A stretch of 6,609 bases of DNA from an uncultured Gammaproteobacteria bacterium (GCA_964522265.1 CAZFVS010000058.1:1-6609); one strand, 5' to 3'. Positions 1,480-6,609 are shown, counted from the first letter of the stretch. Program-made: numbers and translations. Notes: generated from the sequence alone by a model not told the origin.

Positions 1480-3204
1480 TTAAACCTCCACCACTGTTGT
1501 TAAAATAAGCGGGCTCCTTTTGGTTTCTTCATAGAAAAATTTTTCCAGCTGCTCTTCTATCTGATGTCTGGTATATCGCCAGTCAAATACCCCCTCCTTA
1601 CCCCGCAGACAGCTCTTAACTATTTCTTTGGCTGCACTAATCAGATCCTCCGCCTCTTTCTCAAATACAAATCCTCTTGTGATGATATCCGGCTCCCCGA
1701 CAACATGACCGCTCTGTTGCTCTATCGGCACAATAACCACTACCACTCCTTCCTCACTCATCACCTGCCTGTCCCGCAAAATAATACTACCAACATCACC
1801 AACCCCTAAACCATCGACATAGACATTGGAAACATTAACCAAACCGTTCATCTTGACCTTATCTCTCCATATCTCTATCACCTGTCCATCCTGAGCCATC
1901 AATATCTGGTCTTCCCGATAACCCATACTCACAGCCATCCTGGAAAAAGATTTCATATGTCTGAAAGTCCCTCCAATCGGAAGGATATATTTTGGCTTGG
2001 CTAAATTCACCATCAGTTTGAGCTCCTCACTGGCAGCATGCCCGGATACATGAAGATCTGACAGCATAGCGGAATAATAAACATCACAACCTAGCCTGGT
2101 CAGGGTATCTATCAAGGCACTCTGTGCTGATTCTGTGCTGGGGATCGGATCAGCGCTAAATATCACTGCATCGTTTTTATGCAATGCAACATATTTGTGG
2201 TCGTTGTTGGCAACCCGTGAAAGTGCAGAACCGGGTTGACCTTGGGATCCCGCAATCAGGATTATCAATCTGTTATCCGGAAACCGTTTCACTTCTTCCT
2301 GGGCAATAACCAAACCAGGCGGGATGTCTAAATAACCCAAATCCCTGGCAACCTGAAAATTATTCTCCACCGACCTGCCGGCTAAAGCCAGTTTCCTGCC
2401 GGAGCGCACCGCCACATTGACTGCCTGCTGGATCCTGGTAACATTAGAAGACGTCATGGTAATCAGGACTTTTCCCTTGGTTTCTTTTTCAACACCGGCA
2501 AAAGTGCTTTCTATGGTTTTTTCGGAGAGGGTATACCCTATCTTCTCCACCCTGAGACAGTCGATAGTCATAAAAATAACACCACCCTCACCTACTCTGG
2601 CCACCCTGCCTACATCAGTCACCTGACCATTAACAGGGGTCCAATCCATCTTAAAATCCGCCTGGTGGATGATTGTCCCGACAGGAGTGGACAACACTAT
2701 CCCGGTTGAATCAGGTATGGAGTGGGAAACCTGATAAAAAGAAGCTCTGAAGGCCCCCAATTCAACCTGGTCACTCAAACCAACTGTTTTAATGTAATCT
2801 TTGGATAGTTTATGTTCGGTAAATTTCGACTTGATCATACCGCAAGTCAGTTTTTGTGAATAAATCGGGATATTCCCCAGTTGCGGCCAAATATACGGCA
2901 ACCCCCCGATATGGTCATCGTGTGCATGAGTAATCAGAATCCCCCTGATTTTATGTTTTTTATCTTGGAGGTAAGATATGTCCGGGATCACCAGGTCTAT
3001 ACCCAACATCGCCTCATCAGGAAATCCCACTCCGCAATCAATAATCACTATATCATTACCATATTCATAAACATACATATTTTTAGTGACATCACCTACC
3101 CCTCCCAAAGGAACCAGCCTGAGCATATTGCTGCCTGAAGGCTGTACTGGTGGTGCAAATTTTTGATGTAATTTTGGCTTAAACTGTCTCATTGTTAATT
3201 TCAA
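1480..3204 (-). CDS. rnj: Ribonuclease J (metallo-beta-lactamase / beta-CASP RNase)
   Basis: 574-aa ORF. LRLVPLGGVGDVTKNMYVYEYGNDIVIIDCGVGFPDEAMLGIDLVIPDISYL matches the RNase J N-terminus. The HxHxDH zinc motif is THAHDDHIGG (HAHDDH at 2911..2928). beta-CASP and late-MBL features include DPIPSTE, HVSGHAASEELKLM and a C-terminal domain. The track start at 3204 is TTG. In-frame ATGs lie at 3192 (codon 5) and 3126 (codon 27, directly before LRLVPLGG), so the start is uncertain by up to 26 codons. Confidence 0.92.
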   Translation of the reverse strand: MKLTMRQFKPKLHQKFAPPVQPSGSNMLRLVPLGGVGDVTKNMYVYEYGNDIVIIDCGVGFPDEAMLGIDLVIPDISYLQDKKHKIRGILITHAHDDHIGGLPYIWPQLGNIPIYSQKLTCGMIKSKFTEHKLSKDYIKTVGLSDQVELGAFRASFYQVSHSIPDSTGIVLSTPVGTIIHQADFKMDWTPVNGQVTDVGRVARVGEGGVIFMTIDCLRVEKIGYTLSEKTIESTFAGVEKETKGKVLITMTSSNVTRIQQAVNVAVRSGRKLALAGRSVENNFQVARDLGYLDIPPGLVIAQEEVKRFPDNRLIILIAGSQGQPGSALSRVANNDHKYVALHKNDAVIFSADPIPSTESAQSALIDTLTRLGCDVYYSAMLSDLHVSGHAASEELKLMVNLAKPKYILPIGGTFRHMKSFSRMAVSMGYREDQILMAQDGQVIEIWRDKVKMNGLVNVSNVYVDGLGVGDVGSIILRDRQVMSEEGVVVVIVPIEQQSGHVVGEPDIITRGFVFEKEAEDLISAAKEIVKSCLRGKEGVFDWRYTRHQIEEQLEKFFYEETKRSPLILTTVVEV

Positions 3205-3205
3205 A

Positions 3206-4880: not shown

Positions 4881-6609
4881 CTACCATAATTCCTGCGGTT
4901 GCGGCTCAAACTACCGCTTCTTGATGAACCCATACTGCTGAATCCCCGGTCCCTCCTCCCGAAACCACCACCTGTCCTCATACCGCCTCCACCACGGAAT
5001 CCTCCGCTGTCATACCCTCCTCTTTCAGATGTAAAATTGCGGTGTGTTGATCCACCACCCATCCGGTTTCCGCTGCCAAAACCTCCCCTTCTTTGGAATC
5101 CTCCCCGCTCCGGCCTGCCTTCGGATTCTATTTTTCTATCCTCCCCAAATAACATCGACAGTCCTATTTTACCCTGTTGGTCAACATCTGTAACCCGCAC
5201 ATGGACTATCTGACCTTCTGACACAACATCTTCCGGATGCTCAACTCTACCTGGCGCCATCTGAGAGATATGAACCAATCCATCCTTACCCGGTAATATC
5301 TCAACAAACGCTCCAAATTGTGTAATTCTTACCACCCGGCCGTCATACTCTTCCCCTATTTTCACTTCTTTAAACATACCTTCAACAACTTCCAAAGCTT
5401 TTTTGATCGCCTCTTCATCAGTTGATGAGATCATAACAGTCCCATCATCCTCAATATCAATTTGTGCTCCGGTTTTCGCAATAATACCGTTGATATTCTT
5501 TCCTCCCGGTCCAATCAATGAACCAATCTCTTCAGGCTTAATGTGGGTTATTTTGATTTTGGGGGCGTACTGGGATATCACCACCTCTTTTGGCATCACC
5601 CCAATCATCTTGCCCAGTATAAATTCCCTGGCATTCTTACCCTGCCTTAATGCTTCCTCAATAATTCCAAAGGTGAGCCCGTGCAGTTTAGTATCCATCT
5701 GGACTCCGGTAATGCCGTTTTTGGTACCGGCTATTTTAAAGTCCATCTCTCCGTAAAAATCTTCAACTGCCTGCATATCAGTGATTACCTGAAACTTTGC
5801 TTTTTTTGAGACTGAGGGGTCGTGGTCCGTAAAAAGCCCCATGGCAATTCCTGCCACAGGCTCTATCGGCACTCCTGAGTTTAACATCGCCAATGTCGAG
5901 GCGCAAACCGCAGCTTGTGAAGTAGAGGCGTTAGCCCCTAACACCTCTGAAACAACCCTAATTGCATAGGGGAATTCCTCCTTGGAAGGAATCACGCTAT
6001 TTATAGAAATCTCCCCCAGATTACCGTGGCCGATATCGCGCCTGTTTGGCGACCCTATCCTTTTAACATCACCGGTGGAAAAAGGGTTAATACTCATATT
6101 GTAATAATGCATAAAACGTTTTGAATCCTCTCCCTCCATCCCCTCAAGCGTTTGAGAGTCAGACAGCGGACCCAAACTTGCAACTGACCGCACCCGTGAG
6201 CCCCATCTTTTGAATATGGCTGAACCATGGGCTCCAGGTAAAACTCCAATTTCCATATAAATATCCCGTACATCCTCCATCCCCCTACCATCAACCCTTT
6301 TACCTTGTTTGAGAATAAAGTCATTCATCATCTCTTTGGCTACCTTATCAAAAATAGAAATTACCTGTACAGCTGTTACGGTATCCGCATGAAGAGCAAT
6401 TATTTCATCCTTGATGATATCCCCTGTTGAATCATGCCAGGTGGAATTTTTGTCAAACAACGCCTTTTCTATCCTGTCTTTAATATCTTTTGTGACTTTG
6501 GCCAGCAGTTGGGGGTCAATCTCTTCTGATACAGCTACAAATGCCTGTTTTTCCCTACCCGCTTCTTTATCATAATCTCTAATTATACCAAGTAGGTGAC
6601 GCGACTGCC
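4877..6609 (-). CDS. pnp: Polynucleotide phosphorylase, C-terminal ~576 codons (N-terminus off the right window edge)
   Basis: The track starts this ORF at an internal TTG (6460). Hand translation shows the frame stays open to 6609: ...QSRHLLGIIRDYDKEAGREKQAFVAVSEEIDPQLLAKVTKDIKDRIEKALFDKN...

- Second RNase PH core: KRVDGRGMEDVRDI, GSPNRRDIGHGNL, FPYAIRVVSEVLGANASTSQAAVCASTLAMLNSGVPI, VAGIAMGL.
- Metal site: VEDFYGEMDFKIAG.
- KH domain: IGSLIGPGGKNINGIIAKTGAQIDIEDDGTVMI.
- S1 domain: YDGRVVRITQFGAFVEILPGKDGLVHISQM...GKIGLSM. Confidence 0.93.
   Translation of the reverse strand, partial: QSRHLLGIIRDYDKEAGREKQAFVAVSEEIDPQLLAKVTKDIKDRIEKALFDKNSTWHDSTGDIIKDEIIALHADTVTAVQVISIFDKVAKEMMNDFILKQGKRVDGRGMEDVRDIYMEIGVLPGAHGSAIFKRWGSRVRSVASLGPLSDSQTLEGMEGEDSKRFMHYYNMSINPFSTGDVKRIGSPNRRDIGHGNLGEISINSVIPSKEEFPYAIRVVSEVLGANASTSQAAVCASTLAMLNSGVPIEPVAGIAMGLFTDHDPSVSKKAKFQVITDMQAVEDFYGEMDFKIAGTKNGITGVQMDTKLHGLTFGIIEEALRQGKNAREFILGKMIGVMPKEVVISQYAPKIKITHIKPEEIGSLIGPGGKNINGIIAKTGAQIDIEDDGTVMISSTDEEAIKKALEVVEGMFKEVKIGEEYDGRVVRITQFGAFVEILPGKDGLVHISQMAPGRVEHPEDVVSEGQIVHVRVTDVDQQGKIGLSMLFGEDRKIESEGRPERGGFQRRGGFGSGNRMGGGSTHRNFTSERGGYDSGGFRGGGGMRTGGGFGRRDRGFSSMGSSRSGSLSRNRRNYGR
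4880..5152 (-). other. Arg/Gly-rich low-complexity C-terminal extension of PNPase (RGG-type tail, 91 aa)
   Basis: After the S1 domain ends (..KIGLSM), the ORF continues LFGEDRKIESEGRPERGGFQRRGGFGSGNRMGGGSTHRNFTSERGGYDSGGFRGGGGMRTGGGFGRRDRGFSSMGSSRSGSLSRNRRNYGR. It contains at least four RGGF/GGFR-type repeats. The nucleotide unit ggaatcctcc recurs on the plus strand near 4995 and 5093. There are no hydrophobic core residues. E. coli PNPase ends shortly after S1. Confidence 0.85.

Follow-up and report, generated by a model that had tools for sequence, protein, structure and literature searches.

A protease-less derivative of the LonA ATPase in a conserved housekeeping gene string of the candidate phyla radiation

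The LonA proteases of Bacillus subtilis, Escherichia coli, and Meiothermus taiwanensis (MEROPS S16) join an N-terminal LON substrate-binding (LAN) domain and an S16 protease domain to an AAA+ module composed of a helical bundle, a nucleotide-binding domain, and a lid. In the RNA degradosomes of Helicobacter pylori (RNase J-RhpA), B. subtilis (RNase Y/J1/J2/PNPase/CshA), and E. coli (RNase E/PNPase/RhlB), a DEAD-box helicase is combined with a scaffold or membrane anchor on an endonuclease, and the genes are generally unclustered. Here we describe a stretch of 6,609 nucleotides (nt) titled uncultured Gammaproteobacteria (GCA_964522265.1, CAZFVS010000058.1:1-6609), called the window throughout, which is a piece of a co-directional gene string of the candidate phyla radiation (CPR). 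It includes lonA', a gene whose product, judged by sequence comparison, is a LonA-derived AAA+ module of helical bundle, nucleotide-binding domain, and lid, without the N-domain or the protease. As in degradosomes, the main exonucleases are PNPase and RNase J, and here an ATPase gene stands beside theirs; no DEAD-box RNA helicase was found among the window genes by Pfam or NCBIfam, and the ATPase present is the AAA+ protein LonA'. Our favored interpretation, which we hold about as likely to be right as wrong, is that the genes form a conserved housekeeping string and that LonA' is an undescribed, protease-less LonA derivative working as a stand-alone, ATP-driven protein remodeler.

Loss of one of the two Lon activities has a counterpart in LonC (MtaLonC), in which the protease is kept and the ATPase-like module is inactive (PMC3391209, PMC13069640); LonA' is its mirror image, with the ATPase kept and the protease absent. 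AAA+ motors of protease lineage have also been kept without proteolysis in the plastid FtsHi pseudo-proteases (PMC8197885) and in ClpB/Hsp104, although FtsHi retains a dead protease domain, whereas LonA' has none, and ClpB keeps its pore-loop tyrosines. By analogy with these proteins, an AAA+ motor held under selection without proteolysis would imply a remodeling or motor role.

The gene and the motifs used in the comparisons are as follows, with coordinates counted from the first letter of the window.

3206..4255, minus strand: lonA', encoding the 349-amino-acid LonA-derived AAA+ module (Pfam AAA and Lon_lid, PF00004 and PF22667)
3863..3886, minus strand: Walker A, GLVGSGKT, with G, K, and T invariant in both lonA' alignments (close and divergent relatives)
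3740..3781, minus strand: remodeled pore-loop 1, LRGESRIKAEAEPG, placed by alignment to LonA structures and by the family motif
3674..3697, minus strand: Walker B, VILLDELD, with D and E invariant in both lonA' alignments

LonA' matches LonA residues ~248 to 580 from end to end. Against the TIGR00763 model it aligns at positions 248 to 567 of 795 with 312.7 bits, about half of the cut-off of 608.05, and against NF008053 it scores 244 bits (cut-off, 891). The LAN domain (PF02190) is absent by Pfam, and in place of an S16 Ser-Lys protease domain the open reading frame (ORF) stops directly after the lid, with rnj following 1 to 13 nt further on. Of the solved structures, that of B. subtilis LonA (3m6a; E = 1.1e-70) is the best match, and alignment to the LonA structures 3m6a and 6n2i gives ~38 to 40% identity (E = 1e-70 to 1e-66). 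The predicted structure has medium confidence (predicted local distance difference test [pLDDT], 66), and Foldseek returns nothing but Lon among its top 50 PDB matches; this model-based fold search adds nothing to the sequence match. A preliminary description of this DNA had proposed a Lon-derived gene without a protease domain, and that identification stands: neither Lon_C (S16) nor a LON N-domain is present in any of 240 family members among the matches listed.

When 5.8 billion proteins were searched, more than 6,600 matches of ~345 amino acids were obtained; the best 120 are 342 to 391 amino acids long and 64 to 78% identical. Clustering at 50% shrinks the family to a handful of representatives of 350 to 670 amino acids, beyond which come ordinary 800-amino-acid Lon proteases at ~40% identity. 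A profile built from the divergent members extends the family to further proteins without a protease domain, from Dojkabacteria, Nomurabacteria, and the Microgenomates group. These searches indicate that LonA' is a member of a large CPR-wide family spanning Microgenomates, Parcubacteria, and Dojkabacteria. LonA' is conserved as tightly as PNPase and RNase J, and more so at greater distance: among close relatives its median identity to the window is 58%, versus 62% for PNPase, RNase J, and FtsK, and in the divergent set it is 52%, versus 42 to 44% for the same three proteins. The family is mildly acidic, with a median isoelectric point (pI) of 5.8 versus 6.9 for canonical Lon AAA regions. Our literature searches found no described protease-less Lon in the CPR and no link between Lon and RNase J; a Lon ATPase family with neither protease nor substrate domain and with a rewritten pore loop appears, as far as the literature was searched, not to have been described.

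Other architectures were seen among the matches. Three proteins (P0140, 669 amino acids; P0137, 486; P0155, 507) carry Gln/Pro-rich low-complexity N-terminal extensions of 100 to 330 amino acids in place of the Lon N-domain. The top-scoring cluster representatives (P0122, 1113 amino acids; P0125, 1075) have an unusual multi-ring Lon architecture: two to four Lon AAA+ modules stand in tandem ahead of one S16 domain at the C terminus, and in some a membrane segment is present at the N terminus.

Both Walker motifs, sensor-1 (N241), the Arg finger (R253), and sensor-2 (R311), all shared with LonA proteases, are invariant in the close and the divergent lonA' alignments alike. Since a trans-acting Arg finger makes sense only in an oligomeric ring, we infer that LonA' is an active ring ATPase, and most likely it still forms a ring that hydrolyzes ATP. 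The pore is another matter. Degradation by MtaLonA requires both Tyr397 in pore-loop 1 and Trp431 in pore-loop 2 (PMC8503904). In the window the Tyr has become Lys and the Trp aligns with Ala, the canonical pore-loop 1 sequence IRGHRRTY[IV]GAMPG being replaced by LRGESRIKAEAEPG. Across 136 loci the family motif is L-R-G-[QE]-S-[RK]-x-[HRKFY]-P-[DE]-A-E-P-G, in which P-[DE]-A-E-P-G stands where LonA proteases have [IV]-G-A-M-P-G and the variable Tyr position is aromatic in ~20% of the loci. To judge from this alignment, pore-loop 1 of LonA' has been rewritten and conserved as an acidic motif rather than having decayed.

The genomic setting of lonA' was compared across 165 related loci, drawn from species-representative genomes (80 loci) and metagenomes (80 loci) with up to 10 kb of flank each, plus annotated contigs, with neighboring genes labeled by phmmer. 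The consensus order was rpsO-pnp-lonA'-(udg)-rnj-ftsK. Upstream of lonA', pnp was found on the same strand in 100 of the 119 loci with enough flank; rnj lay downstream in 109 of 121, and ftsK followed rnj in 89 of 94. The gene rpsO (S15), itself outside the window, adjoined pnp in 91 of 97 relatives, preceded by nusA-infB where the flank reached that far (L001, L004, L086, and L087). The string was found in Daviesbacteria, Gottesmanbacteria, Beckwithbacteria, and Chisholmbacteria (all Microgenomates), on a Nomurabacteria (Parcubacteria) contig (L086), and in a Dojkabacteria genome (L087). The proposed linkage of lonA' to the two nucleases is thus conserved in relatives, and coincidental adjacency, against which the preliminary description had cautioned, is not the explanation, since the arrangement recurs in 165 independent loci. 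Neighboring pairs were adjacent at the following frequencies.

rpsO to pnp: 94% within 300 nt
pnp to lonA': 63% within 300 nt, 92% within 1.5 kb
lonA' to rnj: 64% within 300 nt
udg to rnj: 89% within 300 nt
rnj to ftsK: 70% within 300 nt

The genes for uracil-DNA glycosylase (udg) and for the DNA translocase FtsK are held in the string as firmly as those for the nucleases. A neighbor-joining tree of LonA' shows udg separating lonA' from rnj in basal branches as well as in several branches of the Microgenomates. The gene occupies this position in many lineages, among them those of L086 (9137-9748) and L087 (9217-9873), and it is found neither in the lineage of the window nor in most Microgenomates loci. 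Its position in the basal branches implies that the direct lonA'-rnj junction is derived, through loss of udg. Many contigs with this CPR string (L006, L010-L013, L071, L082, and others) are titled "uncultured Gammaproteobacteria," "Pseudomonadales," or "Bathyarchaeia," taxonomic labels that look wrong.

The same nusA/infB/rpsO/pnp backbone is found in E. coli, in the order nusA-infB-rbfA-truB-rpsO-pnp-nlpI-yrbN-deaD. Downstream of pnp in that string come an envelope-protein gene (nlpI) and then an ATPase gene (deaD) on the same strand, as TM205 (a membrane-protein gene introduced below) and then lonA' do here. The likeness is positional only: deaD encodes a DEAD-box helicase and lonA' an AAA+ protein, NlpI is unrelated to TM205, and E. 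coli has no rnj. We take the corresponding orders to be rpsO-pnpA-...-dapA-rnjB-tepA-spoIIIE in B. subtilis and rpsO-gpsI-pepR...dapA-rnj...ftsK in Mycobacterium tuberculosis, although we found no support in the literature for a pnp...rnj...ftsK order in either organism. If that synteny holds, the CPR string would be a compacted ancestral neighborhood into which lonA' was recruited.

Not every lonA' gene is found with the nucleases. In one clade, comprising 11 metagenome loci together with L170 and L171, neither pnp nor rnj occurs within 8 to 10 kb of lonA', which is instead divergent (head to head) from groES-groEL (Cpn10 and Cpn60 by Pfam) across a spacer of 95 to 115 nt (L170 5888-9050, L171 144-3306, L115, L118, L121, L128, L131, L133, L134, L146, L150, L163, and L166). 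In addition, lonA' of L088 lies 4.5 kb from pnp with rnj not nearby, and L089 has neither gene. The chaperonin context is the only neighborhood hint for a particular function, and it points to protein quality control. The groESL-lonA' spacer contains a conserved TTGTCAAG...TAGTCTGCTAA element, which on the groES strand reads TTGACA plus a TTAGCAGAC half-site. In 169 loci the CIRCE consensus (controlling inverted repeat of chaperone expression; TTAGCACTC-N9-GAGTGCTAA) was never matched exactly, so that control of this spacer by HrcA is at most putative.

In the window, lonA' is part of a cassette of four genes, pnp, TM205, lonA', and rnj, whose order and common strand are as the preliminary description had given them. 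The remaining features are listed below.

4877..6609, minus strand: pnp, C-terminal 576 codons, with the PNPase helical domain, second RNase PH domain, KH, and S1
4880..5152, minus strand: Arg/Gly-rich low-complexity C-terminal tail of PNPase, 91 amino acids, read from the translation after the S1 domain
4263..4880, minus strand: TM205, ORF of 205 amino acids with one N-terminal membrane helix and no Pfam or NCBIfam match
1480..3204, minus strand: rnj (RNase J), ORF from TTG 3204; likely true start, ATG 3192
1454..1462, minus strand: extended -10-like box, TGgTATAAT, in the rnj-ftsK spacer; candidate separate ftsK promoter
1..1393, minus strand: ftsK, first 464 codons (4TM, alpha domain, and the beginning of the motor), running off the window start; final member of the conserved string

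PNPase and RNase J each score above curated cut-offs. The pnp product matches NF008805 at model positions 212 to 680 of 683 (E = 9.5e-159), its truncation being due to the window end and not to mutation. RNase J scores 554 bits against TIGR00649 (cut-off, 400), has the Lactamase_B, beta-CASP, RMMBL, and RNase_J_C domains (PF00753, PF22505, PF07521, and PF17770), and shows the HxHxDH motif as THAHDDH in translation. Every gene is on the minus strand, and the plus strand of the window has a negative GC skew along its entire length (cumulative, -6.5), which together fit the minus strand being the leading strand. An Rfam scan of the window gave two chance-level snoRNA matches and nothing else.

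The junctions of the cassette are tight: pnp and TM205 overlap by 4 nt (ATGA, read from the sequence), TM205 and lonA' are separated by 7 nt, and lonA' and rnj are separated by 1 nt if rnj starts at TTG 3204, all as in the preliminary description, or by 13 nt if it starts at ATG 3192. Such distances leave no room for a terminator or promoter. The nine terminator-like sites in the window (5.8 +/- 2.2 expected) are all intragenic, none falling in the junctions, and the consensus promoter scan found no convincing site in any of the three; both scans gave about as many sites as shuffled sequence would. Co-transcription of pnp, TM205, lonA', and rnj in the genome of the window, as the preliminary description had supposed, is almost certain. 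The rnj-ftsK spacer is wider, at 86 nt; it holds the TGgTATAAT box 60 nt upstream of the ftsK ATG (start at 1393), which the consensus scan overlooked because it has no -35 element.

Relatives that lack TM205 have a pnp-lonA' spacer with a median length of 49 nt, in which no conserved stem-loop was detected (median z = 0.15; 3 of 63 below -2). A TAnAAT box is common 5 to 12 nt before the lonA' ATG in these relatives, peaking at 6 nt (18 of 145, versus ~1.4 expected per position), and it occurs likewise 5 to 12 nt before the ftsK ATG (peak, 6 to 7 nt) but not before rnj (spacers of L023-L155); proximal promoter-like boxes are thus frequent before lonA' and rare before rnj. The closeness of these boxes to the ATG suggests frequent leaderless transcription in these CPR lineages. 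The pattern suggests that the string is transcribed as three units in many lineages, namely rpsO-pnp, lonA'-(udg)-rnj, and ftsK, with lonA' and rnj seeming to share a transcript in most. In the subclade of the window, where the insertion of TM205 leaves no space for a lonA' promoter, the four genes probably form a single transcript with pnp.

The preliminary description had regarded TM205 as a possible membrane tether in the set, while cautioning that the bulk of the protein is predicted to lie outside the cytoplasm. The caution is borne out: a single hydrophobic segment spans residues 5 to 23, and the remainder is predicted to be outside the cell. TM205 has no match in Pfam or NCBIfam, a search of the 5.8 billion proteins returned only TM205 itself, and its single-sequence AlphaFold model is unusable (pLDDT, 45). 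Weak homologues were found by phmmer among the fetched loci, in 19 closely related loci of one Daviesbacteria subclade, at 25 to 41% identity where neighboring genes have ~60 to 78%. TM205 is a recent, fast-evolving, lineage-specific insertion between pnp and lonA', and a role as a general membrane tether is unlikely, since it is missing from most related loci and its bulk is predicted to be extracellular. At L088 5329-6002, an HTH_17/PIN toxin-antitoxin-like pair accompanied by DUF2079 and DUF4012 genes lies between pnp and lonA', which marks this spacer as a recurrent insertion site, as with TM205 in the window.

The two nucleases have basic terminal segments. R/G-rich (RGG-type) PNPase tails of 50 to 134 amino acids and 40 to 69% R+G are general in Daviesbacteria-like PNPases, and basal lineages (L087, L088, L090, L101, and L105) have short tails or none. 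Tail length was considered as a correlate of lonA' linkage and rejected, because short-tailed basal lineages still carry lonA'. RNase J has an N-terminal extension of ~25 amino acids ahead of the metallo-beta-lactamase core (window 3126-3204; L001-L060), with a conserved M-K-x-F-K-P-K; its conservation in relatives makes ATG 3192 (MRQFKPK) the more likely true start of rnj.

The preliminary description had read the cassette as a possible RNA-decay module, in which LonA' would be the ATP-driven partner of PNPase and/or RNase J, in the role of a DEAD-box helicase. LonA' may in that case remodel RNA-protein substrates, or its acidic pore loop may engage the PNPase Arg/Gly tail or the basic RNase J N-terminus. 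Several observations lean this way: lonA' sits between pnp and rnj in three deep CPR groups; rnj mostly lacks a proximal promoter-like box of its own and comes after lonA' or udg, an arrangement that implies its co-transcription with lonA'; RGG-rich PNPase tails and a basic RNase J motif face an acidic pore loop; and E. coli deaD lies two genes downstream of pnp. Against it, udg and ftsK are equally conserved neighbors, so that what survives of the earlier proposal is co-transcription and non-random linkage but not an RNA-specific module (udg-rnj, 89%, and rnj-ftsK, 70%, versus pnp-lonA', 63%, and lonA'-rnj, 64%); deep conservation of gene order in streamlined genomes is not by itself functional coupling, since unrelated neighbors are conserved to the same degree. 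Moreover, one clade has shifted lonA' to groESL, away from both nucleases, with L088 and L089 also unlinked. We know of no Lon-family AAA+ protein that acts as an RNA motor, the acidity of the family (pI, ~5.8) is unlike that of a nucleic-acid motor, and basal lineages with lonA' have only short PNPase tails. Among 505 CPR genomes, pnp is kept in 94.9%, rnj in 96.8%, and rnc in 99%, and RNase E is nearly absent (PMC12641178), figures that speak for such a module. The same survey, however, records deaD in 42.8% and rhlE in 40.2%, with one or the other in 399 of 505 (79%) and neither in 106 (PMC12641178). The earlier statement that the Lon-derived module is the only ATPase is therefore true of the window but not of CPR genomes, where a DEAD-box helicase is usually available and the case that LonA' must supply a missing ATPase is weak. 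On balance we regard this role for LonA' as unlikely, while still giving it a real chance.

Other explanations take up different parts of the evidence. LonA' could be the ATPase half of a two-gene protease, in the manner of HslUV or ClpXP, with the S16 ring encoded elsewhere; it ends exactly where the protease domain would start, keeps all ring-ATPase residues, and belongs to a family under strong purifying selection. However, no ORF for a Lon N-domain or protease lies within 10 kb on either side of lonA' in the 165 loci (E. coli Lon as N-domain reference), and the aromatics that drive polypeptide into a protease chamber have been lost, and we consider a split Lon distinctly improbable. A DNA or nucleoid role, in which LonA' acts with UDG and FtsK on DNA-bound proteins or on DNA, would accord with udg directly after lonA' in many lineages, with ftsK at the end of the string, and with retention of the lid domain; Lon is known to bind DNA. 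Yet udg is missing from most Microgenomates loci, the window included, LonA' is acidic, and adjacency in the string is no more function-specific for DNA genes than for RNA genes, which together make such a role very improbable. The window is a short, 6.6-kb metagenomic contig, and the 349-amino-acid ORF might be just part of a full-length lon that had been broken or misassembled; we rejected this, with almost no doubt, because the ~345-amino-acid architecture recurs in thousands of proteins and on contigs of up to 1 Mb, and its start and its stop are both conserved, with intact genes on either side.

We therefore return to LonA' as a stand-alone protein remodeler within an inherited gene string. 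Under this model the string would extend the classical rpsO-pnp operon to (nusA-infB-)rpsO-pnp-lonA'-(udg)-rnj-ftsK. In the lineage of the window, udg would have been lost, so that lonA' abuts rnj, and a membrane-protein gene would have been inserted between pnp and lonA', the TM205 insertion joining rpsO-pnp to lonA'-(udg)-rnj, which look like separate units in many relatives, as a single compact transcript. LonA' would act as an ATP-driven remodeler or chaperone with no protease to feed, co-expressed with RNA, translation, and DNA housekeeping genes through inherited gene order, and would not be a dedicated subunit of an RNA-decay complex. Several points weigh against this model. The designation "protein remodeler" would derive mainly from homology and from the groESL context in one clade, and the missing pore-loop aromatics argue against classical polypeptide threading. 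Every locus was retrieved via lonA', that is, the sample consists of lonA' carriers. The retention of lonA' between pnp and rnj over Dojkabacteria, Parcubacteria, and Microgenomates exceeds most gene-order conservation and may reflect selection for co-expression with the nucleases, and the position of nlpI and deaD downstream of pnp in E. coli is a parallel that would favor a role in RNA decay.

A bolder possibility, which we offer as speculation and think rather unlikely, is that LonA' is the ATP-dependent core of a CPR-specific machine for RNA decay or RNA quality control, in which the acidic pore loop of an AAA+ ring would engage the PNPase Arg tail, the RNase J basic N-terminus, or RNA-bound basic proteins. 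If that were true, LonA' would couple ATP hydrolysis to the turnover of RNA, either replacing a DEAD-box helicase or working alongside one, and this would be the first degradosome built on an AAA+ motor.

It is the protein LonA', more than the cassette, that is worth following up. Databases name it "AAA family ATPase" (Daviesbacteria and Patescibacteria) or, wrongly, "ATP-dependent Lon protease." CPR bacteria account for a large part of bacterial diversity, and their genomes are tiny; a gene kept in them as tightly as those for PNPase and RNase J is likely to be important. Knowledge of what LonA' does would show how a protease motor can take on a new use and would complete models of how minimal cells control the quality of their proteins or RNA.

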